Source: a virus (Duplodnaviria; Heunggongvirae; Uroviricota; Caudoviricetes). Taken from it: a stretch of DNA of 29,440 nucleotides. Numbering within the stretch: position 1 is the first letter of the stretch; each line of letters opens with the position of its first letter. The position numbers and the translations under genes were made by a program. Positions 4,774-28,766 of the stretch are shown here, piece by piece. Location of the stretch: positions 1-29,440 of IMG/VR virus record IMGVR_UViG_3300045988_117814. One strand, 5' to 3'. The notes beneath the pieces were generated by a model, which saw nothing but the letters and a program-made list of their open reading frames with translations, did not search any database and was not told the DNA's origin.

Positions 4774-4850
4774 TGGCGTGGTATGCAGGATTCGAACCTG
4801 CGACCAACCGCTTAGAAGGCGGTTGCTCTGTCCAACTGAGCTAATACCAC
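4774..4850 (-). tRNA. tRNA-Arg (anticodon TCT / UCU, reads AGA)
   Basis: Reverse complement folds by hand into a canonical cloverleaf: 7-bp acceptor stem GTGGTAT/ATACCAC, D-arm GCTC/GAGC, anticodon stem ACCGC/GCGGT with loop CTTCTAA, T-arm GCAGG-TTCGAAT-CCTGC, discriminator G and encoded CCA. Confidence 0.9.
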
Positions 4851-8177: not shown

Positions 8178-9170
8178 ATGACAATGGCTGTTAAAGGCTT
8201 TACTGCGCTAACGCTGGCTGACTGGGGTAAGCGCGTCGATCCAAACGGGAAAGTCGATAAGATTATCGAGCTTCTCGGTCAAACTAACCCGATCCTTCAG
8301 GATATGCCTTTTGTCGAAGGGAACCTTCCTACCGGACACCGAACCACCATTCGTTCTGGTTTACCTTCAGCTACCTGGCGTTTGCTGAACTATGGTGTAC
8401 AGCCAAGCAAATCAACCACAGTGCAGGTCACCGATTCCGTTGGCATGCTGGAAACCTATGCTGAAGTCGATAAGTCACTGGCTGATCTGAACGGCAATAC
8501 CGCCGAGTTCCGCCTGTCTGAAGACCGCGCATTTATTGAAGCGATGAATCAGCAGATGGCGCAGACACTGTTTTATGGTGATTCCAGCGTTAACCCTCAG
8601 CAGTTTATGGGACTGTCCTCCCGCTATTCCAGCCTGTCTGCGGGTAATGCTCAGAACATCATTGATGCTGGTGGCACGGGTACAGATAACACCTCAATCT
8701 GGTTAGTGGTGTGGGGCGAAAACACCGTGCATGGCATCTTCCCGAAAGGGCAGAAGGCTGGCATCCAGATGGAAGATAAAGGCCAGGTGACACTGGAAGA
8801 TGCGAATGGCGGCAAGTACGAAGGCTACCGTACCCATTACAAATGGGACAACGGACTTGCTCTGCGTGACTGGCGTTATGTTGTTCGCATTGCAAACATC
8901 GATGTCAGCAATCTTTCAGAACCTTCCTCTGCCGCAAATATTGCGAAGTTGATGGTTAAAGCACTGCATCGCATTCCAAACCGTGGCATGGGCCGCCCGG
9001 TGTTCTACATGAACCGCACTGTAGGCCAGGCTCTTGATCTACAGTCTCTGGAGAAAACATCTCTGGCTATCAGCGTAAAAGAGACTGAAGGCGAGTGGTG
9101 GACTTCATTCCGTGGTGTACCAATTCGTGAAACTGATGCGCTTCTGGAAACAGAAGCCCGCGTGGTGTAA
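8178..9170 (+). CDS. Major capsid protein
   Basis: 330 aa; follows the scaffold gene with a strong SD (AAGAGAGGAA); a stem-loop follows the gene (9188-9203). Confidence 0.8.
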   Translation: MTMAVKGFTALTLADWGKRVDPNGKVDKIIELLGQTNPILQDMPFVEGNLPTGHRTTIRSGLPSATWRLLNYGVQPSKSTTVQVTDSVGMLETYAEVDKSLADLNGNTAEFRLSEDRAFIEAMNQQMAQTLFYGDSSVNPQQFMGLSSRYSSLSAGNAQNIIDAGGTGTDNTSIWLVVWGENTVHGIFPKGQKAGIQMEDKGQVTLEDANGGKYEGYRTHYKWDNGLALRDWRYVVRIANIDVSNLSEPSSAANIAKLMVKALHRIPNRGMGRPVFYMNRTVGQALDLQSLEKTSLAISVKETEGEWWTSFRGVPIRETDALLETEARVV

Positions 9171-14464: not shown

Positions 14465-16977
14465 TGCCAGTCGTACCAACAGTATCCGGCCGTCAGGTTC
14501 AGAGCCGTGGAGTTCAGTCAGCAGGCTTGCAGAGGTTTTCTCAGCCAGGTATTGGTGATGCTTTTGTTCGGGCAGGGACAGAGGCAATTGATGTTTTTGG
14601 TCAGGCAAAACAGCGTGCCAATATCGCTCTGGCTCAGGAGGCATCTCTTAACCTCAGTCAGATAAGCAGTGATCTGCTGAATAATCCTGAAACAGGATTG
14701 CTTAACCTGAAAGGGAAAAATGCTATTGGAAAAGGCCAGGAGTATACGCAGCAGTTTGATGCTCAGGTCGAACAACTGGCTATGTCGCTGCCGGATGAAC
14801 AGGCTCGTAATGCTTTCATGCAGCAGGCGCAGCAGCAGCGCATTCAGTTCACTACGCAGGCAGGGCGGCACGAGATAGGGCAAATAAATGCCTACGAAGA
14901 AGGCCAGTTTCAGGCTACGCTGCTGAACAATGGTAAAAATGCCGCAGCATTGTATGGCGACAACGCCGCATACGTATTGGCTAATAAGCAAACTTTCCAG
15001 CAAATTGAGGATTACGGCGTTGCACATGGCTGGAGTGACGAGCAAATCCAGGCCAAGAAAATCGAGTTTAAAGAGAAGGTTGCTGATGCTGCATTGTCCC
15101 AGTGGTCGGCAAACAATGCGACCACATTCATCCAAAGTAATGGCGAGTTAAGTGATACTGCTGCTGGAGCTCGCCGTGCTGTAGCAGATAGTGACTCTTC
15201 CGAGCGTGCCCGTGGCATACGCAACAATAACCCAGGAAATCTCGAATACAGCAAAACTAATCCGTGGGTAGGCCAGACCGGTGATGATGGTCGATTTGCT
15301 AAATTCGAAACACCTGAACACGGGATTCGTGCATTAGGGCGGAACCTGATGTCGTATCAGAGGCAGGGTATTGATACCGTCAGCGAGATAATTAATCGCT
15401 GGGCACCGCCTACTGATAAAAATGACACTATGTCGTATATCAAAGCAGTGTGCGAACAACTTGGCGTTTCTGCTGATGAGCCTCTCGATGCATCTAATCC
15501 TGATACCCTGAAGGCGCTTTGTGCAGCCATTATCCATCATGAGAACGGTAGCCAGCCATACAGTGATCAGCAGTTAACTGCTGGTGTCAGTGCAGCACTT
15601 GGTTTATCAACAATTCCAACCAACACCAAACGCTATACCGGTAATGCAGCATTCGATGCGGCATCTCCTGAGGCGCAGGCAAGTTTTATGCGACAGGCGG
15701 ATCAACTGCGTCGGCAGCAGCAGGCTGAATATAAAACGATGATTGACAGCCAGGTTCGCGATGCGACAGCTGCGTATATGCGTGGCGTTGAATTTCCTAA
15801 CCCACCTGGTGAGGCTGATTTTATTGCAGCTTATGGAGTCAGAGAAGGAAACCTGCGATATACCGAGTTCAGAAATACGCAAATCGCCGGACAGTATATA
15901 GGCTCTTTCCGCAACATGCCGACAAGCAGCATTACAGCATATGTTGAGCAATTACGCCCGGATACTGGTGAGACAGGGGAGGGTTATGCGGCACGAGCCG
16001 CTCTTTATGACAACGTTGTGTCGGCTGCAAGTCAGGTGATAAAGCAGCGACAGGCTGATCCTGTACAGTTCTCTCTTGCCGCCGGACAGGCAAAGCCTAT
16101 CGACATGAGCAATAAGGATAACTTTGGACAGAGCGTTGCCTTGCGTGCTACTCAGGTCAGTGACCTTGCTAAGTCATATGGCACTCCACTGACGTTCTTT
16201 TCCAAAGACGAGGCCAATCAGATCGGTGTTTTCTTTCGTGATGCGCCCGTTTCCCAACAGGCAGCATATCTCGATACCATCAGGCAGAGCACTGGTGGTG
16301 GGCAGGTGTATATGTCAGCACTACAGCAGATCAGTGCCAACGCTCCATCTGCTGCCGTTGCCGGGATACTGATGGATAAGCCAGGTGGTATTTTGGCAGA
16401 AAAAAACTGGTTTAATCCGGATGTTTCCGTGTCTCCTGAAACCGCTGCGCAGACAATTCTTGCTGGCGCGGCGGCTCGTAAAGGTACTGATGACGCGAAA
16501 GGTATTCCGATGCCTAAAGATGCTGATCTCCGCCTTGAGTTTTCTGACATGGTGAAGGATGCATTTGCTGGTGATGCTCAGGGGGCATCAATGGCATACG
16601 AGATCGCAAAGGACTATTACGCTGGTGTGATGGCGAAAAAAGGCGTGGTATCAGGCGAAATTGACAATGATATCTGGAAACAGGCTGTTAACGTAGCTAC
16701 AGGTGGCGTGCATGACTATAACGGAATGGGGAATGTTCTTTTGCCGTGGGGAATGTCTGCAGAGCAATTCGATAAGCAGGTTAATCAGGCTTGGAATGAA
16801 CAAGTTGTTGGCACAGGGATAAAAACACCGCCTGGTCAGTATGGTTTGCAAAGTTACGGCGATAGTCAGTACCTGGTGAAACTTGGTACTGGTTATCTGC
16901 TAAAAGATGATGGTTCTCCCGTTGTTCTTGATCTGACACAGAAGCGTCAGAGATTCTCCGGAGATATTCCGCAATGA
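14464..16977 (+). CDS. Large internal virion / ejection protein, with a candidate enzymatic domain
   Basis: ATG at 14464 overlapping the upstream stop (TAATG) behind GGAGG; the ORF-track start at 14389 would overlap the previous gene by 75 nt. Contains a conserved-looking block RNNNPGNLEYS...PEHGIRALGRNLMSYQRQG. Confidence 0.7.
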   Translation: MPVVPTVSGRQVQSRGVQSAGLQRFSQPGIGDAFVRAGTEAIDVFGQAKQRANIALAQEASLNLSQISSDLLNNPETGLLNLKGKNAIGKGQEYTQQFDAQVEQLAMSLPDEQARNAFMQQAQQQRIQFTTQAGRHEIGQINAYEEGQFQATLLNNGKNAAALYGDNAAYVLANKQTFQQIEDYGVAHGWSDEQIQAKKIEFKEKVADAALSQWSANNATTFIQSNGELSDTAAGARRAVADSDSSERARGIRNNNPGNLEYSKTNPWVGQTGDDGRFAKFETPEHGIRALGRNLMSYQRQGIDTVSEIINRWAPPTDKNDTMSYIKAVCEQLGVSADEPLDASNPDTLKALCAAIIHHENGSQPYSDQQLTAGVSAALGLSTIPTNTKRYTGNAAFDAASPEAQASFMRQADQLRRQQQAEYKTMIDSQVRDATAAYMRGVEFPNPPGEADFIAAYGVREGNLRYTEFRNTQIAGQYIGSFRNMPTSSITAYVEQLRPDTGETGEGYAARAALYDNVVSAASQVIKQRQADPVQFSLAAGQAKPIDMSNKDNFGQSVALRATQVSDLAKSYGTPLTFFSKDEANQIGVFFRDAPVSQQAAYLDTIRQSTGGGQVYMSALQQISANAPSAAVAGILMDKPGGILAEKNWFNPDVSVSPETAAQTILAGAAARKGTDDAKGIPMPKDADLRLEFSDMVKDAFAGDAQGASMAYEIAKDYYAGVMAKKGVVSGEIDNDIWKQAVNVATGGVHDYNGMGNVLLPWGMSAEQFDKQVNQAWNEQVVGTGIKTPPGQYGLQSYGDSQYLVKLGTGYLLKDDGSPVVLDLTQKRQRFSGDIPQ

Positions 16978-18776
16978 GTTACTTTGGCCTTAATCCAGTA
17001 AACCAGAATCAGCAGCTTGAAGAAGCAGCATCAAATCCAGTTGGCTTTAACAGCGATGTTGGTTTTTTCGACAATGCTGTAGGAGCGGCATTGTCTGGTT
17101 TGTACTCCGGGCTGGTGGCAAAGCCAGATCAGTTGCTCTGGGCAGGGATGGATAAAATCGTATCCCCGATTGCTCAGTTTGTTAACGAAAACACCTCGCT
17201 CAATGACACTTCAGTTTCATACATTGCCGAGCAGAGAAAACTAGCAGAGCAGCAGGTTAAGCGGCTGACGCCTGATGCGGCGACAACCGGAACAGCCGGG
17301 CAGATTCTTTATGGGTTGTTCGATATGGGCGGGCAGGCTGTTATTGGTACAACGCTCGGTGGTCCGGTCGGAGGTGCTGCGGCGGTAACTTCGCTACAGG
17401 GTTTTTCTGAGTTTGAACGGCTGACAGCACAGGGTGTTGATTTCAGGACGGCGCAGGAAGCGGGATTAGTGCAGGGTATTACTGCTGGTGCCGGAACACT
17501 GATCCCTATGAGCCTCGGGTTACGTGCTGGTGGTGCGCTGGCGGAAGGTGTGGCGGCTCAGCTTGCGCGGACGGGTGAAAGTTCAGTGCGACGCGCCGCA
17601 GCAACAGCAGTACGTGCAACGCCAGATATTGCCTATGCCGCAGGTACAAATATTGCGTTCGGTATGGCACAGCGTGGGCTTACTGCAAAAACGCTTCGTG
17701 ATGGTGGCTATAGCGAAATGGCTAACCAGTATGATGTGTTAGATCGACAGGCAATTGCTATTGATGCTGTTCTTGGGGTGGCGTTTGGTGGTGTCGGCAG
17801 ATTTATTAACTCTCGCGGCGAATCTACAAGCGCACCAAATTTTTCACCAGTTGATGTCGATGCTGCACTGGCGGCGAATGCCGCTCATCATGCTGAAATT
17901 GATATTGCTCCCGGCGTCCCGATCAACGTACTTTCGCGAAATTCTCACATTCAGGCTCTGCGAAAAGCCATGTCTGATGTTAGCCAGGCGAGACCTGTAG
18001 ACGTTGCCAGCATTGTTGAGTCTGCATCTTTCAGTGAAATTCCTGGGCGCAAGAGTCTGCTGTCTCAGGCAGTTAATGAGGCTCTGTCATCTGTAGATGA
18101 TGGAGTAACGGCGCGCGCTATAGAAAATCGGTTGCTTGAAGAACAGGCCGCGCAGCTTTTGCCGCGTGGCGATAGACAGGTTTACCAGTCTGAAATCGCT
18201 AATAGCCAACGAATTATTGAAAATCTCACTGAACAGCGCGCACAAATTCTTGCAGAAGAGCCAACCGGTAGCGGTAAGGCTTTATCTCGTGCTCGATCAG
18301 ATAAACAGGCCAGACTTCGCGATATTGACCAACGAATCCGGCAGGCACAAGAACGCCTGGAATTTTCTCGTAACGCGTTGGCACCGCATGAGCCTGGCGG
18401 TCAGTTTTTTGAAGCTCGAGCAGAACTGGCACGGCGACAGCAGGTAGAAAGTGAACTTAATGCTCAGGCTGTTTCATTCTATAAAACAGCAGAGGTCAGG
18501 ACGCCAGACGAAGTAGCTCCTTTTGAGCCTGATAAAATATTGCAACAGGCAGAACAAAAAATGATGGCATATCAGGCAGGAGATATTGACCTGCGCATAG
18601 CTGAAGACTCGCTGCTTGAATCACCTGACATGATAATCACCGTGCTGGATGATGATGGTAATCCACAATCGCGCAGTGCGCGTGAAGTACTGGATGAAGC
18701 GAACAGGGAAAGTGAGCAGGCAATACAGGATTCCAGCCTGTTTGATGTCGCTGTGGCGTGTTTCTTGAGAGGTTAA
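16974..18776 (+). CDS. Internal virion / ejection protein
   Basis: 600 aa; start overlaps the previous stop (ATGA); Ala/Gly-rich N-terminal half and coiled-coil C-terminal half. Confidence 0.65.
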   Translation: MSYFGLNPVNQNQQLEEAASNPVGFNSDVGFFDNAVGAALSGLYSGLVAKPDQLLWAGMDKIVSPIAQFVNENTSLNDTSVSYIAEQRKLAEQQVKRLTPDAATTGTAGQILYGLFDMGGQAVIGTTLGGPVGGAAAVTSLQGFSEFERLTAQGVDFRTAQEAGLVQGITAGAGTLIPMSLGLRAGGALAEGVAAQLARTGESSVRRAAATAVRATPDIAYAAGTNIAFGMAQRGLTAKTLRDGGYSEMANQYDVLDRQAIAIDAVLGVAFGGVGRFINSRGESTSAPNFSPVDVDAALAANAAHHAEIDIAPGVPINVLSRNSHIQALRKAMSDVSQARPVDVASIVESASFSEIPGRKSLLSQAVNEALSSVDDGVTARAIENRLLEEQAAQLLPRGDRQVYQSEIANSQRIIENLTEQRAQILAEEPTGSGKALSRARSDKQARLRDIDQRIRQAQERLEFSRNALAPHEPGGQFFEARAELARRQQVESELNAQAVSFYKTAEVRTPDEVAPFEPDKILQQAEQKMMAYQAGDIDLRIAEDSLLESPDMIITVLDDDGNPQSRSAREVLDEANRESEQAIQDSSLFDVAVACFLRG

Positions 18777-18781
18777 ATTAA

Positions 18782-21256
18782 ATGAGACAGGAATGTATAC
18801 AAGCGGTTCAGCAGGCGGCGCAGCGCACGTTAACGGCGCGAGAAATACAGAACATTGAAGACCGCATTTATCGAAATATGCGCTCCATTGCTCGTGATGA
18901 CCCGATGTCGTGGAGACAACTTTCCGAATCAGAGCGGCTATATCGAGCAGCACAATTGGCATCTGAAGAATTACAGCGAGAAGCGGCATTAAAGAAACGT
19001 CGTGTGGCTCTCACTATAGCCGCGCGTCAGAGATTGGATAAGTTTATCAATAGCTATCAAGGGGCTGATGGGAAACTTGGCGCTCTTAACCGTACTATTG
19101 CTTTTAATGCAGACGGTAAATCGAACTTCCTCTCTGTTGAGTCCAGAACAAAAGCCACTCGTGATTATGCATTGAGTCAATTGCAGGAGGCATTTGAAGC
19201 AGTAGATCCTCGCTTTTTTGGCCTGTTTGAAGATGAAGCGGGCGTGCGTGATCTGGTATATGAAATGCGAGGGCAAAATACTGGCAATTCTAAAGCAAGA
19301 AAAGGTGCTAAGGCGTGGAGAGAAGTGACAGAGCTACTGCGACGCCGGTTTAATGATGCTGGTGGGGACATTGGCTATCTCGAAAACTGGGGGATCCCTC
19401 AACATCATTCTATGGAAAAGGTTGGGGCGGTATCAAAGGATAAGTGGGTTAGCGATGTTATAGGTAAGCTGGATCGCAAATATTATATCCGAGCCGATGG
19501 ACAACTGATGAACGATGCCGAGTTGTCTGCATTTCTTGGAGAGGCTTATAACACGATCGCTACTGGTGGGCTGAATAAGCTTACTGATACCGGAATGCGA
19601 ATTTCCGGCTCACGTGCTAACCGTGGTAATGCATCACGACAGATACATTTCAAAGATGCAGATTCCTATCTGCAATATCAGCAACTTTATGGCGATCGCT
19701 CTCTATGGGAAATCATGGTCGGTCACTTGGAAGGTATCAGTAAAGATATTGCACTGGTGGAAACATATGGTCCAAACCCCGATCATGTTTTCCGCTCCCT
19801 TCTTGATCAGGTTAAGGCAGAAACGGCAACAGCTAACCCGAGTAAAACCGGTAGCGTCGAGCGTCTGGCGAACAAAACAGAGAACCTGTACAACTTTATT
19901 TCCGGAAAAACACAGCCTGTAGCGAATCCGCACATCGCGCGATGGTCTGACAATATCCGCAACTGGCTGGTTGCCAGCAGGCTCGGATCCGCGTTGCTGT
20001 CATCGTTCTCTGATCTTGGAACCATGTATCTGTCTGCGAAGGTTACCAACCTTCCAATGAACCAGTTATTCCGCAACCAGCTTGAAGCTATGGACCCAAC
20101 GAACCGTACAGAACTTGCGCGGGCGCGCCGCGCTGGTCTGGCGATGGAATCTCTACTTGGCAGCGTTAACCGCTGGGCGATGGATAATATGGGGCCGTCT
20201 GTGTCTCGTTGGGCGGCAACGGCGGTAATGCGTGCCAGTGGGCTTACAGCATGGTCAGATGCGCACAAGCGCGCCTATGGCGTAACCATGATGGGAAGCC
20301 TGGGAGAAGTAGTGTCACGGACACCAGACCTTCGTAGCCTCGATGACTCTGATTTTCGTATCCTGAAAAGCAAAGGGATTACTGACACAGACTGGAGCGT
20401 GTGGAAACTGGCGCAACAGGAGGACTGGGGGAACGGTAATAATACGATGCTGACACCGGAAAGCATTATGCGTATCCCTGATTCAGCAGTTAAACATCTT
20501 GGTGAGCCTGAACGCGTGAAATTTGAGGCAATGCGTAAACTGCTCGGTGCCGTAACTGAAGAAGTTGATATGGCTGTTATTACACCTGGCGCACGTGAGC
20601 AACTGATAACCGGTTCTGGTATTCAGCGTGGGACATGGAAAGGTGAATTAACGAGAAGTGTTTTCCTGTTTAAATCGTTCCCTATCTCGGTGGTTATGCG
20701 TCACTGGTCACGCGCTATGGGTATGCCGTCTGCTGGTGGGCGTGCGGCATATATTGCGACGTTTATTGCCAGTACGACCATTCTTGGCGCTTTGTCGCAG
20801 CAACTTAACGACCTTGCGTCTGGTCGTAATCCTCGCGAGATGACAGGAGAAGATGCTGCTAAATTTTGGCTTGGTGCTCTACTGAAAGGTGGTGGTCTTG
20901 GCCTTTACGGTGACTTTTTATTGTCAGATCACACTAGGTACGGAAGCGGCGCGCTGGCGTCGATGCTTGGCCCGGTAGCTGGTCTGGTTGATGACGTAGT
21001 GAAGATTGCTCAGGGCATACCGTTAAATGCTGTGGAAGGGAAGAATGAGCAGACTGGTGGTGATCTGGTTAAGCTGGGGAAAGGTCTGATGCCAGGTGCG
21101 AATCTCTGGTACTTAAAGGCGGCTCTCGATCACATGATCTTTAACCAGATGCAGGAGTATTTTTCACCAGGTTATTTGCGTAAAATGGAGCAACGTTCGA
21201 AGAAAGAGTTTAACCAGACATACTGGTGGCGACCTCAGGATGTCACTCCGCAATAA
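18782..21256 (+). CDS. Large internal virion / ejection protein
   Basis: 824 aa; SD GAGAGG; last large gene of the same-strand late operon, which ends at the terminator at 21426-21450. Confidence 0.65.
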   Translation: MRQECIQAVQQAAQRTLTAREIQNIEDRIYRNMRSIARDDPMSWRQLSESERLYRAAQLASEELQREAALKKRRVALTIAARQRLDKFINSYQGADGKLGALNRTIAFNADGKSNFLSVESRTKATRDYALSQLQEAFEAVDPRFFGLFEDEAGVRDLVYEMRGQNTGNSKARKGAKAWREVTELLRRRFNDAGGDIGYLENWGIPQHHSMEKVGAVSKDKWVSDVIGKLDRKYYIRADGQLMNDAELSAFLGEAYNTIATGGLNKLTDTGMRISGSRANRGNASRQIHFKDADSYLQYQQLYGDRSLWEIMVGHLEGISKDIALVETYGPNPDHVFRSLLDQVKAETATANPSKTGSVERLANKTENLYNFISGKTQPVANPHIARWSDNIRNWLVASRLGSALLSSFSDLGTMYLSAKVTNLPMNQLFRNQLEAMDPTNRTELARARRAGLAMESLLGSVNRWAMDNMGPSVSRWAATAVMRASGLTAWSDAHKRAYGVTMMGSLGEVVSRTPDLRSLDDSDFRILKSKGITDTDWSVWKLAQQEDWGNGNNTMLTPESIMRIPDSAVKHLGEPERVKFEAMRKLLGAVTEEVDMAVITPGAREQLITGSGIQRGTWKGELTRSVFLFKSFPISVVMRHWSRAMGMPSAGGRAAYIATFIASTTILGALSQQLNDLASGRNPREMTGEDAAKFWLGALLKGGGLGLYGDFLLSDHTRYGSGALASMLGPVAGLVDDVVKIAQGIPLNAVEGKNEQTGGDLVKLGKGLMPGANLWYLKAALDHMIFNQMQEYFSPGYLRKMEQRSKKEFNQTYWWRPQDVTPQ

Positions 21257-21265
21257 GGATGAGAA

Positions 21266-21406
21266 ATGATTGCTTTTATTCTTGTTGTGTTTGCTCTTGT
21301 TGCACTTGGCGTTATGAACCGTAAATGTATCATTGGTGATGGTGAATTTGCTGTTGCAGTTGTTTTGATATTATCTGGTGTAGCAGGGTACATAGGTTTG
21401 TCATAA
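21266..21406 (+). CDS. Small hydrophobic protein, 46 aa (below the ORF-track size cutoff)
   Basis: ATG at 21266 behind AAGGATGAG; translation MIAFILVVFALVALGVMNRKCIIGDGEFAVAVVLILSGVAGYIGLS; TAA at 21404-21406; terminator immediately after. Confidence 0.4.
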   Translation: MIAFILVVFALVALGVMNRKCIIGDGEFAVAVVLILSGVAGYIGLS

Positions 21407-21425
21407 CGTAAGCGTTACATGTCAC

Positions 21426-21450
21426 AGGCCGCTCTTGCGGCCTTTTCTTT
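21426..21450 (+). terminator. Rho-independent terminator ending the structural operon
   Basis: AGGCCGC-tctt-GCGGCCT hairpin followed by TTTCTTT. Confidence 0.65.
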
Positions 21451-21706
21451 ATGTGGTTTGTTTTCGTAATTGTTCGGCACAATAGTCGAGATGTGTTTGC
21501 AGATCCCGCATAGACATCTGTGAGCTGGTGACGTAGTTAATCAGTGCAGTCAGTTCGGCAAGTGGGCCATCGACATTAAATCCATCCTTATCGAGATCCC
21601 GGAGTAATTTCATCAAGTGCGATCCCTCCACCAGTGACCTGACGCCTCCCGGCGTGTGAATCCTTTCGGTAAATCCGTCTTCCAGTGGATAGTGATACTG
21701 CTGCAT
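21449..21706 (-). CDS. LexA-controlled small protein; candidate SOS-inducible antirepressor or regulator
   Basis: First ATG at 21706-21704 behind GGAGAAGATAAG on the - strand (the ORF-track start at 21724 is TTG); a near-consensus LexA box lies 22-37 nt upstream. Confidence 0.6.
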   Translation of the reverse strand: MQQYHYPLEDGFTERIHTPGGVRSLVEGSHLMKLLRDLDKDGFNVDGPLAELTALINYVTSSQMSMRDLQTHLDYCAEQLRKQTT

Positions 21707-21725
21707 CTTATCTTCTCCATGCAAT

Positions 21726-21745
21726 AACTGTATATTTATACAGTA
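21726..21745. promoter_or_regulatory. LexA (SOS) box
   Basis: AACTGTATATTTATACAGTA: CTGT-N8-ACAG with an AT-rich spacer, 18 of 20 matches to the consensus TACTGTATATATATACAGTA. Confidence 0.7.
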
Positions 21746-21901
21746 TCAAATAATTTGTTTGCTATCCAGCACGTTTTGCAAATCACCTGAAAGGTAATAT
21801 CTGTTTGTATTCATGGTCTATCTATCTATATATGGTTTTTCGGGTAATAGAATAATCGGATATGCGGCGCAACGGGTGCTGCGACTATCTGGAGATTTAA
21901 C

Positions 21902-24331
21902 ATGACGGTCTCAACCGAAGTTAACCACAACGAATACACCGGTAACGGCGTTACGACATCATTCCCTTATACCTTTAGGGTTTTCAATAAATCTGATTTA
22001 GTAGTGCAGGTGATTGACCTTGACGAGAATATCACTGTGCTGGATCTTGATACTGATTACACAGTCACTGGTGCGGGAGGGTATAACGGTGGCAATGTAA
22101 TTCTGTCGAAGGCACTGGCTAATGGTTATCAGATTTCCATATTGCGAGAACTATCGGTTACTCAGGAAACAGATCTTAGAAACCAGGGTAAGTTTTTTGC
22201 TGAGGTGCACGAAGACGCGTTTGATAAGCTAACGATGCTGATCCAGCAGGTAAGAAGTTGGTTTTCACTTGCTCTTCGTAAGCCATCTTTTGTGTCGAAT
22301 TATTATGACGCTATTAACAACTACATCAGAAATCTGCGAGACCCTGTGCGCCCACAGGATGCGGCAACTAAAAATTATGTCGATAAACTTGCTAATACAA
22401 ATCTAGGTCGTACTCTTAGAACGCCTGAGCCAATACCAAGTTTGCCTGATGCTGAGAATCGTAAAAACAAAGTGGTAGCGATGGATGACAATGGTAATCC
22501 TATTATGGTCCTTCCACAGTCTGGATCTGCATCCGATGTAATGATTCAGCTAGCAGCAAGTGATGGCTTAAAACTTATTGGCAATTGTGCTTCCATTTCT
22601 AATTTACGCAATATAGAACCAACAAATTTACAGCAAAGAATATATGTATTAGAGCATACTTTAGGCTCTGGTATTGGAGGTGGGTATTTTTATTATGATA
22701 GCACTGATTTAACAACAATTGATGATGATGGAATGATAATTGTGACGCCTGGTGGAAAGCGTTGGAAAAGAATCTGCAATGAAGTGTATGCTGATTATTA
22801 CGGAATTGTTCCTGATGGAGTAACGGATTGTCATGATAAATTGAACAAAGCACTGCAAGCGGCAAAAATGGCAACGGTGAAAGAGCTTATTCTTTCTGAA
22901 GGTACTTACGGGATTAACTCTGCACTGAAAGTACCATCTTACGTTAGATTGTGTGGGGTGGGGAAATTTAAGACCGTTATTCTAGCACTACCAACAATGC
23001 CGATAATTGAAAACTGTATTCAGAACGAGCTTTATGAATACAGGGTATTCAGGACAAACTACGATACTTCTATCCACATAGAAGACTTATGTGTAGATGC
23101 TAACAATCGAGCAAGAAATCCGTCAGAAACATGGATGGATGCCACACAGGGGACTACTATTTTATTTTCTACTGTCAGCCACAGTTCCATCAAAAACGTT
23201 TACTGTAAGCGTGGTTTGCAGCATGGTATAGATATTTGTGCTGGGTATTATTTCGATGATGGGAATATTAATAATAATGCAGTTGGTGGTAGCTATGACA
23301 TTGTTGTTGAAGACACTTTTGTTCAAAACAGTCAACTTGACGATCTCATTACAACGCATAATAGCAGTGATATTGTAATTAACCGCTGCCGAGTATGGAA
23401 CGATGACCCTGATATGGTATGGACAGGGAATCAGCATGGTATTGAAATTGATGAAGGAAGTTATAATGTTACCGTGATGGATTGTTATGCGGATGGGGTA
23501 ATGACTGGATTTCAGCAGAAGGGCCACTCAACAACAATGCCCGCAAGATGTGTTAAATTTTATAGATGTTATGCAAAAAATTGTGTTCATGGATTCCAAA
23601 TTGAGCACATTAATACAGCATCAATACCATCGGGGCGGCATCAAAATGCCAGGTATTCCGTTATAGCAAGTTGTACGGTTGAAAACGCAAACAACTCAAA
23701 ATACACATCAAACCATGCAAGGGTTGTTGAAATTTTAGGGTTCTACGGTATTTATATAAATGAATTAAGGGTTATCGGAGGTGCTGGTAATATATATATT
23801 AGCGGCGGAGCAAGATATATAAACATAGATGGCATTTTTTGGGATGGTGGATACTCAGGAGCTTCCGATACTGATGCCGAGGGATTGGTTCATATAGAAA
23901 CTGATTCAAGCTGTGATGACTACACGATAAATAACTTTATCTGTGAAGATAGCGTAAGTGTTCCATTGATTAGAGATTTGACAGACTCAAGAGTTCAAAG
24001 AGGAATAAGTAATATTAGAGGTTATGGTAAAAACGCAACAATACCAATGATAGCCATTGTCCCAAATGATGATGATAATATATCAAACATATCAACAGCT
24101 GGATCATGGCTTTGTGCTATTAATGATATGGCCAGAGCTCCAGGGACAGGAACATATAGTCAGAATGTTTCTTTTATACATGGTATTTCATTGATAAGCG
24201 GTTCAGGAACTCCTTACGGAGTTATTAATGGTAAGCCAGGAGGATTATATGTTGACAAAAACACAGGATACTTCTATCAATGCACAAGCGCAGGAAGTGG
24301 AGGATGGAAGGGGTTGGTAAGTAATCCTTAA
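21902..24331 (+). CDS. Tailspike (receptor-binding, probable O-antigen depolymerase)
   Basis: 809 aa; N-terminal particle-binding-type domain (EYTGNGVTTSFPYTF...) of the kind seen in many podovirus tailspikes, followed by an AT-rich body with beta-helix-like repeats; last structural gene. Confidence 0.8.
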   Translation: MTVSTEVNHNEYTGNGVTTSFPYTFRVFNKSDLVVQVIDLDENITVLDLDTDYTVTGAGGYNGGNVILSKALANGYQISILRELSVTQETDLRNQGKFFAEVHEDAFDKLTMLIQQVRSWFSLALRKPSFVSNYYDAINNYIRNLRDPVRPQDAATKNYVDKLANTNLGRTLRTPEPIPSLPDAENRKNKVVAMDDNGNPIMVLPQSGSASDVMIQLAASDGLKLIGNCASISNLRNIEPTNLQQRIYVLEHTLGSGIGGGYFYYDSTDLTTIDDDGMIIVTPGGKRWKRICNEVYADYYGIVPDGVTDCHDKLNKALQAAKMATVKELILSEGTYGINSALKVPSYVRLCGVGKFKTVILALPTMPIIENCIQNELYEYRVFRTNYDTSIHIEDLCVDANNRARNPSETWMDATQGTTILFSTVSHSSIKNVYCKRGLQHGIDICAGYYFDDGNINNNAVGGSYDIVVEDTFVQNSQLDDLITTHNSSDIVINRCRVWNDDPDMVWTGNQHGIEIDEGSYNVTVMDCYADGVMTGFQQKGHSTTMPARCVKFYRCYAKNCVHGFQIEHINTASIPSGRHQNARYSVIASCTVENANNSKYTSNHARVVEILGFYGIYINELRVIGGAGNIYISGGARYINIDGIFWDGGYSGASDTDAEGLVHIETDSSCDDYTINNFICEDSVSVPLIRDLTDSRVQRGISNIRGYGKNATIPMIAIVPNDDDNISNISTAGSWLCAINDMARAPGTGTYSQNVSFIHGISLISGSGTPYGVINGKPGGLYVDKNTGYFYQCTSAGSGGWKGLVSNP

Positions 24332-24379
24332 TAAATTTAATGCCGATAGATTGTTTAAGTATCCGTCGGCATTTTTTGT

Positions 24380-25381
24380 TTATTTTAGTTTTCTTAGAAT
24401 ATTTCTGCTTGGCTTTTCTACTAAATGAAATGTTAATATGGAAAACATCAGTGTAGATATAACCATAACAAACACATCATTTATATAACTAACATTTAAC
24501 CATTCAGTTATTGCATTCACTTCAAATATAAAATGCCTTTGTATCATCAGGTGCGTAAGGTAAATTGAAAAAGACAACTCCCCCAAATAATGAATAGGTT
24601 TTGTTGATAGTAACCATCCTGTTATTCCAGTGCTATAATAAAGCGATGATATATATAATCCGGTCAAAATAACAAAAACAATATCCATTCCTTTTGTTAG
24701 TAAACACGCTATTACTAAAGCCGCCAAAATATCTTGAGTATATGCAATAACATTAAATGTGTGTTTGTATTTATCAAATAAAACATAGCAACAACAACCT
24801 ATAGTGAAACCACAAACACCTCTCATTATTGAAGGGATTCCGCTATATATATCAAGTGGCCCGCTACTACCAGGGTTGTCAATTGTTGTAATATAAAACA
24901 ACATTGACATTGATGTGTAAATTATTATGAAACATAACCATTTCTTATCGGTTAATAAGAATATTAGAGGCGGAAATATTAAATACGCAATTAATTCAAC
25001 GCTAACAGACCATGATGCACCAACCATTCCATTATTAAATAAATTTTGCCACATCATAAAATTTATTATGAGATTTTGAGTTGATGGTGGCGATGATTGA
25101 TTTACTTGAATAATTATTGTTAATAATAAAACAAATAAATATAATGGATATATTCTTGAAAATCTATGCCAAATAAATTTTCCAAATTCACTAACAGATA
25201 TTTCTTGTGTGAAATTTTTAGAGTATACCATACACATTATAAATCCGCTTAATACGAAAAAAAGATCTACTGCTAGATATCCGTTCCATAGAAAAGGTAT
25301 TTTTGCGTTTGTAAAGTGATAAAGAACTACGTAAATTGCAGCTATTCCTCTAACACCTGTTAGTGATTTTATTTCTTTCAT
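24380..25381 (-). CDS. oac: Acyltransferase family 3 integral membrane protein; probable O-antigen O-acetyltransferase (lysogenic conversion)
   Basis: 333 aa, multi-pass membrane protein with hallmark motifs SLTGVRGIAAIYVVLYHF and VDLFFVLSGF; very AT-rich; convergent with the tailspike. Confidence 0.8.
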   Translation of the reverse strand: MKEIKSLTGVRGIAAIYVVLYHFTNAKIPFLWNGYLAVDLFFVLSGFIMCMVYSKNFTQEISVSEFGKFIWHRFSRIYPLYLFVLLLTIIIQVNQSSPPSTQNLIINFMMWQNLFNNGMVGASWSVSVELIAYLIFPPLIFLLTDKKWLCFIIIYTSMSMLFYITTIDNPGSSGPLDIYSGIPSIMRGVCGFTIGCCCYVLFDKYKHTFNVIAYTQDILAALVIACLLTKGMDIVFVILTGLYISSLYYSTGITGWLLSTKPIHYLGELSFSIYLTHLMIQRHFIFEVNAITEWLNVSYINDVFVMVISTLMFSILTFHLVEKPSRNILRKLK

Positions 25382-25616
25382 ATGTATTTATCTATATAAC
25401 AAATTAAAGTCAATGGATGCCAAACATCATATCATATTTGCAGCATTCTAGTCAGCACTTCACACATCATCCAACGGGGAGAGTCAAATGCTTTGCTGAT
25501 CTATTTCATTGAGATTAGTAGTGGACAAAGGTTTGCATCTGATTGCAAGGCGTTGTGCTATTAGCAGCGTATGCTTTTTAAGCGTTAAAATAAACCACCA
25601 CTAATCCATATAAGGT

Positions 25617-25630
25617 TCGCTGTGTATAAT
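25617..25630 (+). promoter_or_regulatory. Candidate extended -10 promoter for the lysis cassette
   Basis: TGTGTATAAT (TGn-TATAAT) about 20-35 nt upstream of the first lysis-cassette ORF. Confidence 0.35.
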
Positions 25631-25647
25631 GAACTCACTAGCTAAGA

Positions 25648-26082
25648 GTGTCATTATGCTCAAAAATGGTGGTTTTTATGTCAATACAGTTAACCAATGA
25701 ATCTTTAAATCAGTGGCTTAGCGTTGGTTCTTTAGTGTCGGTGATAGCAGGAGTTCCTCCAGAGGTCGCTTTGGGATCTTTGGCTGGTGCGGTAATTTTT
25801 GTTACCTCTGCAGTAGAATACCCAATCCGTCGTCGTGTTCTTCTGTCGATGCTCAGCTTCCTCTGCGGCCTTCTCTTTTACAAACCAGCAGCATCAATTC
25901 TTATCGGCATAGCCAGCCTGATCCCTACCATCACGCAGGACTCATTCGAGAAAGGGATTGCATTTTCTACAGGTGCGTTCGTGTCGGCAATTGTCGCCGT
26001 TCGTATTGGTATATGGCTCTATCATCGTTCTGATAATCCACGCGAGTTGATTCCTGGGAGAAAAGACGATGGTAACGCATGA
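25648..26082 (+). CDS. Multi-pass membrane protein heading the lysis cassette (holin-associated or other membrane function)
   Basis: Four or five hydrophobic helices. Start uncertain: GTG at 25648, ATG at 25666 or 25678. Confidence 0.5.
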   Translation: MSLCSKMVVFMSIQLTNESLNQWLSVGSLVSVIAGVPPEVALGSLAGAVIFVTSAVEYPIRRRVLLSMLSFLCGLLFYKPAASILIGIASLIPTITQDSFEKGIAFSTGAFVSAIVAVRIGIWLYHRSDNPRELIPGRKDDGNA

Positions 26083-26377
26083 GATTTTTTTGCTTATCAC
26101 CAATGCAGTTATTTGTACTGGCATAGCTATTCGTGTTGTTACTTTCCGGCGCAATGGATCTCAACACCGACGATGGGGTGGCTGGCTTGCTTATTTCCTG
26201 ATTGTTGCTGCGGCTAGTATTCCGGTTCGTGTCGCCTATGCAATCTGGTTCAGCATGCCAATGGCAGTGGATTTATCTGAGGTCATTATCAACGTAGTCA
26301 TGCTTGCTGCGGTTATTAAAACACGCGGTAACGTCGTTCAGATTTTCAAATTAGCGAGGTCTAAACATGGAGATTAA
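26069..26377 (+). CDS. Holin (three transmembrane segments, class I-like)
   Basis: ATG behind GGGAGAAAAG; three hydrophobic helices and a charged C-terminus; immediately upstream of the endolysin. Confidence 0.6.
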   Translation: MVTHEIFLLITNAVICTGIAIRVVTFRRNGSQHRRWGGWLAYFLIVAAASIPVRVAYAIWFSMPMAVDLSEVIINVVMLAAVIKTRGNVVQIFKLARSKHGD

Positions 26378-26996
26378 ACAATTTCAGCGAGCTGCTGGTA
26401 TCAGCGAGTCGCTGGCCGACCGCTGGTTCTCGCATATAATTTCTGCGATGAAAGAGTTTGGTATCAGCAAAACCGAAGATCAGGCAATGTTTATTGCTCA
26501 GGTCGGGCATGAGTCTGTGGGCTTCACTCGGTTGCAGGAGAATTTCAACTACAGCGTCAGCGGACTGGTTAACTTCGTTCGGGCTGGGCGTCTCACTCAG
26601 GGACAGGCCAACGTATTGGGGCGACGCGCAGGCGAACCACCATTGTCACTTGAGCGCCAGCGCGCGATCGCAAATCTGGTGTACAGCAAACGCATGGGGA
26701 ACAATGCTCCCGGCGATGGCTGGAATTACCGTGGGCGCGGACTTATCCAGATTACCGGTTTGAATAACTATCGTGACTGTGGAAACGGTCTGAAGGTTGA
26801 CCTGCTGGAGAGTCCTGAACTGCTGGCTCAGGACGAATATGCGGCTCGTAGCGCGGCGTGGTTTTTCTCCAGCAAAGGCTGCATGAAGTATACCGGCGAT
26901 ATTGCACGTGTAACTCTGATTATCAATGGTGGCCGGAACGGCATCGACGACAGGCGTGAGCGATACATCACTGCCAGTAAGGTGCTGGCGATATGA
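26367..26996 (+). CDS. Endolysin, glycoside hydrolase family 19 (chitinase-like lysozyme)
   Basis: Motifs FIAQVGHESVGF and YRGRGLIQITGLNNY typical of GH19-type phage endolysins; start overlaps the holin end. Confidence 0.8.
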   Translation: MEIKQFQRAAGISESLADRWFSHIISAMKEFGISKTEDQAMFIAQVGHESVGFTRLQENFNYSVSGLVNFVRAGRLTQGQANVLGRRAGEPPLSLERQRAIANLVYSKRMGNNAPGDGWNYRGRGLIQITGLNNYRDCGNGLKVDLLESPELLAQDEYAARSAAWFFSSKGCMKYTGDIARVTLIINGGRNGIDDRRERYITASKVLAI

Positions 26997-27475
26997 TCTT
27001 GGCATTCGTAAAAGCATACTGGAAACAGTTGGTTATCGTGGCGATGCTTGCTGTTTTGACTCTATCAGGAGTTGTTGCCTGGAATGTGCATGGTAGCCGA
27101 CAGTACGACGCCGGGTATGCACAGGCGAAGGAAGAGCGCAAAGCCGAAGATGAGAAAGTTCGTCAGCACTACGAACAGGAGAAAGCGATCAATGAACGTA
27201 AAGCGCAACAGAGGATCGACCAGGCGCGCAATGATGCTCTTGATGCTGCCGCTCGCGCTGGCCGGTTGCAGCAACAGCTCGTTGCCATCCGTGAGCAACT
27301 CAGGCAGTATAACGCCATTGTCGGCGCTGGGACGTCAGCCGCAGACACCGGAGTTTTGCTTGCCGACGTGCTCAGCAAATCTCTCGAGAGAAACAGACAA
27401 CTGGCAGAGTATGCTGACCGGGCAGCCGAAGCCGGAAGAGTCTGTGAAAAACAGTACGACACCCTGACCAGATAG
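26993..27475 (+). CDS. Rz: Rz-type inner-membrane spanin (i-spanin)
   Basis: N-terminal TM helix (LVIVAMLAVLTLSGVVAW) followed by a long charged coiled coil; ATGA overlap with the endolysin. Confidence 0.8.
   Translation: MILAFVKAYWKQLVIVAMLAVLTLSGVVAWNVHGSRQYDAGYAQAKEERKAEDEKVRQHYEQEKAINERKAQQRIDQARNDALDAAARAGRLQQQLVAIREQLRQYNAIVGAGTSAADTGVLLADVLSKSLERNRQLAEYADRAAEAGRVCEKQYDTLTR
27192..27467 (+). CDS. Rz1: Rz1-type outer-membrane lipoprotein spanin (o-spanin), embedded in the +1 frame of Rz
   Basis: Basic n-region, hydrophobic core and lipobox (MNVKRNRGSTRRAMMLLMLPLALAGC), then a Pro/Ser-rich periplasmic part; alternative ATG at 27231. Confidence 0.65.
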   Translation: MNVKRNRGSTRRAMMLLMLPLALAGCSNSSLPSVSNSGSITPLSALGRQPQTPEFCLPTCSANLSRETDNWQSMLTGQPKPEESVKNSTTP

Positions 27476-27600: not shown

Positions 27601-27624
27601 TTTGACCCTGCACTATGAATGAAC

Positions 27625-27692: not shown

Positions 27693-28232
27693 TTAATTAA
27701 ACCAGCTGTCCGATTTGTTCTCTTCTGCTTTGCCCACGCTTTTCATCAGATCGCGACCGCCTTCAGTCATATTTCTGTTGGCGTCAGCTTCAGATTGCAC
27801 CACATCGGTTTGCGCAGCTTTGTGCTTCAGTTCCTGATCGATAAATTCGTTTTCTCGCTTAACGCGGGCTTCTTCTTTCGCCAGCGCCAGTTTTTGTTTC
27901 TGAATCTCTAAGCTGCGTAGCTCATCTTCATAACTTTGATCGCGTTTTTTGTCCGCAGAGGCTTCGGCGTCCAGTTTATCCTGACGAGCTTTCTTATTTG
28001 CCGCTGCCGTTGCCGCTCTTTTGTTAGCGGCGGCCTGGGCATTTGCGCGACGTTGCTTCTCTTGCTGGATTTCCCTGTTGCGCTCCGCGACCCATTCGTC
28101 ATGCTGCCTTTGCTCTTCATTTTTACCTTGCTGTTCCGCTTCTGCGACAGCAGAGAGTTGATCCTGCAATGATGAGGCGATAGCCGGATAGCTTAAGGAG
28201 GCTAAGATGGCGCAAAGAAAAACTTTCTTCAT
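27693..28232 (-). CDS. yfgI: Chromosomal secreted/periplasmic protein, YfgI-like
   Basis: 179 aa; signal peptide (MKKVFLCAILASLSYPAIA) then a charged coiled coil; size and neighbour order match the E. coli yfgG-yfgH-yfgI locus as I recall it. Confidence 0.65.
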   Translation of the reverse strand: MKKVFLCAILASLSYPAIASSLQDQLSAVAEAEQQGKNEEQRQHDEWVAERNREIQQEKQRRANAQAAANKRAATAAANKKARQDKLDAEASADKKRDQSYEDELRSLEIQKQKLALAKEEARVKRENEFIDQELKHKAAQTDVVQSEADANRNMTEGGRDLMKSVGKAEENKSDSWFN

Positions 28233-28247
28233 GACTCCTCCTGATTA

Positions 28248-28766
28248 TTAGCTCTTTTCAGGACATTTGGTATTTGGCTGAATACGCGTTTCGTTATACG
28301 TCGTGGTAATAACAACGGCTAAACCTGTCGTAAACTGGCACTCTTTACCCACCTGGGTAGAGGTATACACTTTGGTGCCTTCCTTATAGGTTAAAGAAAC
28401 ACCTTCCACTAAGGTTTTATCATTCACCATAGAACCCGCTGCCGCGCCTACAGCTCCGCCGCCAACTGCACCTGCCGTCGTTCCGGAATTGCTGCCAGAC
28501 CCGACGTTGTGGCCGATAACACCGCCAGCGACTGCGCCAATAAGCGCGCCGAAGGCTTGTGCGTTCCGTTTATTTTGGGAGTTGTCTACGGCAACTTTTG
28601 CGGGAAGAATGGAAATAATATTAACGGTTTTAGTTTCTTGTTTGGTATTCAGTTGATCGGTTTGATAAACATCGGCGGCATGATCGTCAGCATTTGACTG
28701 GCATCCTGCCAGAGTGAATGACGCTAACATTGCTACAGGCAGAAGACATTTTTTAAATTTCATCAC
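28248..28766 (-). CDS. yfgH: Outer-membrane lipoprotein with a glycine-zipper segment, YfgH-like
   Basis: 172 aa; lipobox LAGC; Gly-rich stretch GALIGAVAGGVIGHNVGSG...GAVGGGAVGAAAG. Confidence 0.7.
   Translation of the reverse strand: MMKFKKCLLPVAMLASFTLAGCQSNADDHAADVYQTDQLNTKQETKTVNIISILPAKVAVDNSQNKRNAQAFGALIGAVAGGVIGHNVGSGSNSGTTAGAVGGGAVGAAAGSMVNDKTLVEGVSLTYKEGTKVYTSTQVGKECQFTTGLAVVITTTYNETRIQPNTKCPEKS

Follow-up and report, generated by a model that had tools for sequence, protein, structure and literature searches.

The window analysed here is a stretch of 29,440 nucleotides (nt), positions 1 to 29,440 of the IMG/VR virus record IMGVR_UViG_3300045988_117814 (Caudoviricetes), and it covers Escherichia coli chromosome together with the right arm of a Uetakevirus (epsilon15/phiV10-like) prophage integrated in it. 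The region is syntenic with Escherichia phages phiV10, TL-2011b, phiv142-3, and EC.W1-9, all of them members of the Uetakevirus group of epsilon15 or similar to it, and the portal, major capsid, holin, GH19 endolysin, and Rz genes were identified in it. The tailspike gene under study (21902..24331, + strand) starts with ATG and encodes 809 amino acids (aa), and it is followed by a convergent O-acetyltransferase gene, oac (24380..25381, - strand), with 48 nt between the two. As the initial annotation proposed, the open reading frame is real and encodes a tailspike. It lies 3' of the genes for an 824-aa virion protein and a small gp19-like protein and 5' of the holin, endolysin, and Rz genes, as in Uetakevirus, and this is the position of phiV10 gp25 and TL-2011b gp48, with backbone homology on both sides. 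Sequence comparison indicated that the receptor-binding body of the spike, the spacer, and oac form a block of about 2.8-3.0 kb, which passes as one piece between temperate podoviruses of unrelated kinds (Uetakevirus and P22-like).

The particle-binding anchor domain (aa 1-160, 21902..22381, + strand), which would dock the spike to the tail, was recognised by its identity to epsilon15-like tailspike N-termini. Identity was 68-79% to the N-termini of epsilon15, SPN1S, PAS61, BUCT554, Tyrion, TL-2011b (segment aa 1-160/230), and other tailspikes, and the tailspikes with these matching N-termini carry at least six unrelated bodies. The Uetakevirus anchor, corresponding to the first ~205 aa of phiV10 gp25 and epsilon15 gp20, was found at 72-79% aa identity over aa 1-227/326, and nucleotide homology to phiV10 (85%) extended up to 22581. 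The anchor also matched residues 1-173 of the Dpo31 tailspike (PDB 28lx, E 1.7e-27), and the 230-aa N-terminal piece matched 23 PHROG tail families, at their N-termini. A linker (aa 161-230, 22382..22591, + strand) is common only to a subset of Uetakevirus tailspikes, and it is followed by a neck domain (aa 231-301, 22592..22804, + strand) that marks where the exchangeable block begins on its left side and is a hot zone for recombination. The neck matched CBA120 TSP2 (5w6p residues 7-90) and 6w4q, as well as many PHROG tail families, at internal positions. Nucleotide homology ended at 22248 for phiv142-3 and EC.W1-9, at 22554 for TL-2011b, at 22581 for phiV10, and at 22804 for a prophage of an O118 E. 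coli strain (L026). An anchor of about 130 aa shared among podoviruses had been proposed; the sharing was seen, while the length came to about 160 aa, rising to as much as 230 or 300 aa in comparisons with particular relatives.

Relatives of the body (aa 290-809) at 65-89% identity were found behind at least four other N-termini. These were the P22 Head_binding domain (Salmonella, Citrobacter, and E. coli prophages), Tail_spike_N (PF18668), and two further types on virulent-looking contigs with DNA polymerase, helicase, or tape-measure genes. This domain-wise comparison agrees with the earlier proposal of a mosaic tailspike: by homology, the protein is a lineage-specific anchor joined to an exchangeable body, with the anchor carrying unrelated bodies elsewhere and the body recurring behind other N-termini. 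Over aa 281-480, an E. coli P22-type tailspike (P0004) was 95-100% identical to the window, but only 52-65% identical thereafter, so that recombination has occurred inside the beta-helix as well and the body is itself mosaic. Four metagenome contigs (L022-L025) carried the body at 58-68% identity behind three other N-termini and without an acetyltransferase. The phages concerned, which have DNA polymerase A, SNF2 helicase, ERF/SSB, or tape-measure genes, probably infect the same serogroup and are of a virulent or siphovirus type.

That the body, spacer, and oac are exchanged together is shown by four lines of evidence independent of one another. Homology with P22-like prophages of serogroup O47 begins at 22593-22640, which sets the left edge of the block, with the body from aa ~231. 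From there, window positions 22593-25399 aligned to a P22-like Salmonella prophage (L010) as a single BLASTN block at 85%, and positions 22640-25559 aligned as a single block to Citrobacter portucalensis (L015) at 78% and to L028-L035 at 83%, while the backbones flanking the block showed no alignable homology between the window and L010, L015, or L028-L035. On the right, the region upstream of oac (25382..25601) holds the other edge, where P22-like homology ends at 25399 (L010) or 25559 (L015, L028-L035) and Uetakevirus backbone homology resumes at 25602-25654. Divergence within the block was uniform; identity to L010 was 84% in the body, 85% in the C-terminus, 77% in the spacer, and 87% in oac.

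The third line comes from a sister prophage (L026) in the Shiga toxin-producing O118:H6 E. coli (STEC) strain 2013C-4538 (NZ_CP027582.1 111280-114678). It was 97.5% identical to the window over 16903-22804, unrelated to it over 22805-25601, and homologous again from 25602, and its replacement segment held another body, a convergently oriented EpsG (Wzy-like) gene, and an IS1. The exchange covers both genes, so body and oac were replaced in one replacement. The sister prophage was also present in strain 12089 (O118 STEC, closed genome). The fourth line is the Oac clade, which is sharply bounded, with seven clusters at 82-100% identity and the next relative at 46%. Close Oac homologues (>=82%) were, among the matches listed, seen only beside this tailspike family. 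For Oac P0093 (89% identical), a P22-type tailspike of this body family was called beside it at 7 of the 8 places shown, and at the eighth (L033) the same DNA was present with a stop in the tailspike frame. The suggestion in the initial annotation that the receptor-binding body and oac were acquired together was thus borne out by block homology, uniform divergence, the sister replacement, and the restricted Oac clade, and not by base composition, on which it had rested.

Two observations on the P22-like side bear on the same pair of genes. At six Salmonella loci (L028-L030, L032-L034), on the argW side between yfdC-like and omptin genes, the P22-like prophage was reduced to integrase, oac, and tailspike; prophage decay there seems to have spared the acetyltransferase and the spike linked to it. 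Judging from shared locus-tag prefixes (K2805_ and MKM07_), the same Salmonella isolates encode both P22-type (710 aa) and epsilon15-type (809 aa) tailspikes of this body family. Prophages that are unrelated but have homologous receptor-binding domains (RBDs) would then co-reside in pairs, as is needed for exchange between lineages.

The C-terminal domain of the spike (aa 746-809, 24137..24331, + strand) occurs as a sequence variant together with oac. The variant GLYVDKNTGxFYQCT..GSGGWKGLVSNP stood at the tailspike end in all oac-bearing loci that were read, and tailspikes without oac had another C-terminal variant (L021 read directly, the rest by alignment rows, with aa 721-809 identity of 50-62%). 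At the loci without oac, nucleotide homology was lost at 24136-24144. As far as these alignments go, variation in the final ~65 aa of the spike tracks the presence of oac. Between the convergent genes, and as part of the block, lies a hairpin followed by a T-run (24339..24379), a likely intrinsic terminator, with a fold energy of -17 kcal/mol (z -4.7; 0 of 200 shuffles equally stable). The consensus promoter/terminator scan gave no enrichment and missed this hairpin, which was found by folding. The spacer was 76-80% identical in L010 and L015.

The oac product is a 333-aa O-acetyltransferase of the AT3-only type. PF01757 (Acyl_transf_3) covered residues 5-317 of 333 (E 1.5e-25), with no SGNH domain, and the protein matched the O-acetyltransferase family phrog_3333 (1e-44). 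The motifs R11-X10-H22, R73-F-S-R76 (RxxR), and FFVLSG at residue 41 were intact; R/K-X10-H in TM1 and RXXR in the first cytoplasmic loop have been described as essential in Sf6 Oac and OafA (PMC9558356). Isoleucine, leucine, phenylalanine, and tyrosine make up 38% of the protein. It was 85-89% aa identical to the Oac adjoining P22-type tailspikes, and its closest homologue in isolated phages was at 34%, in Klebsiella prophage-like records. Orthology with the oac of phiV10 (gp26) was rejected, as no BLASTP alignment was better than E 1.3 and only the Pfam family and the genome position are in common. An apparently truncated 285-aa oac in L007 and L008 proved to be a gene-calling difference, the DNA encoding the same 333-aa protein. 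NCBIfam gave an insignificant match only, and the related-locus search with Oac gave nothing in genome contigs (species representatives) and the same phage only in viral contigs. By analogy with Sf6 and phiV10, Oac should acetylate the O-antigen so that the cognate spike no longer uses it.

The body proper (aa 302-745, 22805..24136, + strand) is a predicted right-handed parallel beta-helix (Pfam PF12708, E 8.7e-11) and a putative O-antigen depolymerase. In an AlphaFold2 monomer model built from a 23-sequence alignment, the predicted local distance difference test (pLDDT) score was mostly >90 for aa 224-806, and the N-terminus, where the alignment was shallow, was poorly modelled. The best Foldseek matches in the PDB were structures of phi29 gp12 (3gq7, 3gq8, 3suc; E about 4e-18, probability 1.0), followed by CBA120 TSP2 and Klebsiella and Acinetobacter (capsule) depolymerases (probability 1.0), all of them right-handed beta-helices. 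The fold expected for the body was thus confidently predicted by the model, with right-handed beta-helix tailspikes as its best PDB matches.

The likeness to gp12 extends to the sequence level. In hmmsearch, the family profile matched gp12 with E 4.7e-47 over ~445 residues (profile positions 145-590 against gp12 residues 22-453), with the motifs HGIDI, DDxITTHxS, GxEIDxGS (GFEIDxGS), and KGH (KxH) aligned between the two, and the best PHROG of the body was phrog_4775, pre-neck appendage (1e-34). By these profile matches, the relation is one of true homology between the body and the beta-helix enzyme domain of phi29 gp12 (PDB 3gq7, 3suc, 6qz9). The differences are that identity is only about 20-26%, that the N-terminal attachment domain is another one, and that the window host is Gram-negative, where the substrate would be O-antigen. 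The gp12 C-terminal intramolecular chaperone, which is cleaved off, gave no match, the alignment to the 854-aa chain 6qz9_A ending at residue 542 in what is a sequence-only and weak test. When the helix (aa 296-809) was searched against 50,697 phage records, 123 matched, comprising 74 Staphylococcus phages, 46 Bacillus phages, and 3 phages of Gram-negative hosts. NCBIfam gave no match for the tailspike, and the BFVD fold search returned generic beta-helix tailspikes only, adding nothing on the gp12 link.

The Salmonella hosts of body homologues that have a serovar name were all Bergen, Luke, Teshie, Bere, or arizonae '47:z4,z23:-'. O47 is explicit in the arizonae name, and the other four belong to O47 under the Kauffmann-White scheme. 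The SpikeHunter preprint describes a tailspike cluster common to prophages of E. coli O118/O151 and Salmonella O47, whose O-antigens differ only in the GlcNAc-ribitol linkage (PMC10370184), and O118 and O151 contain ribitol-5-phosphate (PMC7685785). The spike thus probably targets the ribitol-phosphate, teichoic-acid-like O-antigen family O47/O118-O151. One review speculates that a second wzy outside the O-antigen cluster underlies the difference in polymerisation linkage between O118 and O151 (PMC7685785), and 358 of 359 O118/O151 genomes share one wzy allele (PMC13182975). The EpsG/Wzy-like gene of the L026 prophage is a candidate for that second wzy.

Base composition was examined along the window as the G+C fraction (GC) and as GC at third codon positions (GC3). 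GC was 0.504 in the structural-gene backbone (1-21256), 0.423 in a small-gene stretch (21257-21901), 0.427 in the anchor part of the tailspike gene (21902-22592), 0.381 in its remainder (22593-24331), 0.31 in the spacer (24332-24379), 0.290 in the acyltransferase gene (24380-25381), and 0.505 in the lysis genes (25648-27475). An AT-rich island at 21.3-25.6 kb is therefore real, as body-sized backbone windows never fell below 0.467 while the body stands at 0.381. The N-terminal part had been described as backbone-like, which did not hold: at 0.427-0.433 it was under the minimum (0.450) of same-size backbone windows, and its GC3 was 0.38 against 0.455 in the neighbouring structural gene, with a further fall to 0.29 in the body and 0.21 in oac. 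Strong AT-richness from about 22.5 kb onward was seen relative to the backbone, without the sharp step within the gene that this implied; the step from 0.427 to 0.381 is small (chi-square p 0.04), and the most AT-rich segment is oac, not the body. The best GC change point (22568, aa 222) adjoins the recombination junction and was not significant, with 83 of 300 permutations reaching or exceeding its likelihood ratio, and composition was consequently dropped as a main argument. Of the two line counts given earlier, that of 19 G+C in the 60-nt line at 23221 is correct and that of 32 in the line at 8401 came to 31 on recounting. The AT-rich run was also said to continue into the acyltransferase gene, and an Acyl_transf_3 gene does come next, but on the opposite strand and 48 nt away, so that it is no continuation of the tailspike gene.

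The same gradient, from backbone through anchor and body to conversion gene, was found in nine related loci with mutually unrelated bodies (backbone 0.46-0.52, anchor 0.40-0.46, body 0.35-0.42, and conversion gene 0.30-0.32). Composition is therefore a group trait and alone gives no specific evidence of recent acquisition here. AT-richness may even be a standing property of tailspike and conversion regions, owing to amino-acid content, a shared gene pool, or H-NS-type regulation, and no mark of foreign origin, a possibility worth keeping in view although we lean somewhat against it. Besides the common gradient, it fits the conserved anchor lying below every backbone window, the high Ile, Leu, Phe, and Tyr content of Oac, and the non-significant change point within the gene. 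Against it, GC3 falls too, so amino-acid content alone is insufficient, and in any case this explanation touches the composition argument only and leaves the comparative evidence for exchange unaffected. That evidence makes it very probable that the tailspike is a modular one of an epsilon15/phiV10-like prophage in which, from the neck onward, a block with the terminator hairpin and the convergent oac has been exchanged between podovirus lineages. Recombination in the conserved anchor/neck coding sequence would move body and oac together. Several observations weigh against this reading of a linked pair. More distant body relatives (73-78%; L011-14, L017-19, L021) and virulent-looking phages carry the body without oac, so that the linkage is not obligatory and the pair can come apart. 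Both closed O118 genomes with the sister prophage carry a different body, and none of the complete RefSeq E. coli genomes has the body of the window. GC differs significantly between body (0.38) and oac (0.29), and their ultimate origins are therefore probably separate. We also know of no report of O-acetylation for O47, O118, or O151.

The body-oac GC difference and the relatives without oac would also fit a separate acquisition of the two genes, which would be neighbours only through a general cargo slot between the tailspike and the lysis genes (Uetakevirus) or integrase (P22-like). The cargo of this slot does vary, phiV10 having an unrelated Oac, TL-2011b an Oac that is 26% identical and in the other orientation, the O118 prophage a Wzy-like gene, and phiv142-3 and EC.W1-9 none. 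Homology with the P22-like loci, however, is unbroken through the C-terminus, the 47-48-nt hairpin spacer, and oac, with the same orientation, spacing, and divergence; the sister prophage differs by one replacement spanning both genes; and the close Oac clade is, among the matches listed, confined to the side of this tailspike family. Separate acquisition is accordingly considered quite unlikely. In the favoured reading, with body and oac as one block, the gp12-type beta-helix would bind and cut the host O-antigen, recognising one type, probably of the ribitol-phosphate-containing Salmonella O47/E. coli O118-O151 family, and in the lysogen Oac would acetylate the same polymer. The acetylated polymer would no longer be bound or cleaved by the spike, resulting in superinfection exclusion and serotype conversion. 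Such matched action of spike and Oac on one polymer would lead selection to keep the pair adjacent.

The chemistry of the cut is less clear-cut. The appendages of phi29 recognise wall teichoic acid and break it down (PMC9863714), and they are listed among the enzymes acting on its phosphodiester bonds (PMC9656465). Because of the gp12 ancestry and the teichoic-acid-like candidate receptor, phosphodiester cleavage is a serious possibility. The beta-helix would then be a teichoicase-type phosphodiesterase cutting the ribitol-5-phosphate-linked O47/O118/O151 polysaccharide at the phosphodiester and not the glycosidic bond, and lysogens would owe their protection to the linked Oac, through acetylation of a residue next to that bond. 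We put this forward tentatively and would not expect it to prevail, since most characterised O-antigen spikes are glycosidases. Alternatively, and with chances about even, the beta-helix is an endoglycosidase or lyase of the ordinary kind, as are most O-antigen tailspikes (P22, Sf6, epsilon15, HK620, CBA120), and shares only its scaffold with gp12. To our knowledge, every enterobacterial O-antigen tailspike with characterised biochemistry is a glycosidase, a lyase, or a deacetylase. PF12708 is also a broad, pectate-lyase-like family, and Foldseek matched many glycan-cleaving tailspikes as well. However, the gp12 match lies at the sequence-profile level with the His/Asp/Glu/Lys motif set conserved, whereas glycosidase tailspikes match far more weakly and align in the neck region only. 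The matches in isolated phages are almost only to phages of teichoic-acid-bearing hosts, and in the candidate receptors the main chain contains a ribitol-phosphate link. Nothing relevant on a tailspike that cleaves ribitol phosphate came up in a literature search.

Among known systems, phiV10 (tailspike gp25 and Oac gp26) has the backbone and gene order of the window, including a convergent AT3 O-acetyltransferase directly downstream of the tailspike and then the lysis cassette. The two tailspikes share 72% aa identity over aa 1-326, with unrelated bodies beyond aa ~326; the receptor of phiV10 is O157, and its Oac is unrelated to that of the window at the BLASTP level. The Oac of phiV10 changes the O157 antigen and prevents infection by phiV10 (PMC11854483, PMC9558356). 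The Sf6-type arrangement (tailspike, convergent oac, int) is exactly that of the P22-like L010, L015, and L028-L035, whereas the window has a Uetakevirus backbone, a different anchor, and holin genes instead of int next. Sf6 Oac is AT3-only, has an essential RXXR motif, and gives superinfection immunity (PMC9558356). Pas et al. (2023) described anchor/RBD modularity in Uetake- and Lederbergvirus prophages, with conserved anchors (the first 205 aa of the phiV10 protein and 124 aa of HK620) and serogroup-specific RBDs swapped across genera (PMC10408124). The tailspike of the window follows the same principle, O118/O151 being outside the serogroups treated there. In the searched text of PMC10408124 and PMC10370184, neither a co-travelling acetyltransferase nor a gp12/teichoicase relationship is mentioned, the word 'acetyltransferase' being absent from that of PMC10408124.

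Modular tailspikes, O-antigen-modifying genes adjoining the tailspike in epsilon15-like and P22/Sf6-like phages, and the O118/O151/O47 spike cluster are thus already known. The coordinate-level movement of an RBD and acetyltransferase block between two podovirus lineages, the co-variation of the spike C-terminus with oac, and the gp12 ancestry of an enterobacterial O-antigen spike with a probable ribitol-phosphate substrate appear not to have been spelled out before. The locus shows cleanly, at the level of coordinates, how the determinants of host range and of serotype conversion move as a single unit (about 22593-22805 to about 25399-25601), and the block is also swapped between sister prophages of STEC-related E. 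coli. For the prediction of phage and prophage specificity from sequence, the RBD and not the backbone predicts the serogroup, and spike engineering can make use of the junctions at aa ~116, ~230, and ~300, which are natural splice points. Should the gp12-like body prove to be a phosphodiesterase, it would represent new chemistry among enterobacterial O-antigen tailspikes and an O118/O151/O47-specific reagent. An undescribed O-acetylated variant of O118/O151/O47 would be predicted in lysogens.

The exact tailspike protein was found on contigs of 27 collection blocks (E. coli isolates and human gut metagenomes). Toward the end of the window, homology to phiV10, phiv142-3, EC.W1-9, and contig L006 stops at 27602, the point at which these have an integrase. 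Beyond this point lie genes for a DUF5384 protein (27693-28232, - strand) and a glycine-zipper/TraT-like lipoprotein (28248-28766, - strand), presumably E. coli yfgI and yfgH, which their sizes fit, and then host DNA. The end of homology and the non-integrase genes beyond it place the prophage-chromosome junction at about 27602. The TL-2011b record runs on through the DUF5384 and lipoprotein genes and may include host flank. Upstream of the tailspike, the small conserved epsilon15 gp19-like gene (21449-21724, - strand) belongs to phrog_450, and between it and the gene for the 824-aa virion protein the window lacks the additional Bro-N/antirepressor genes that are inserted in phiV10, TL-2011b, and phiv142-3. 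A tRNA-Arg gene (anticodon TCT, 4774-4850, - strand) is located among the early structural genes of the prophage.

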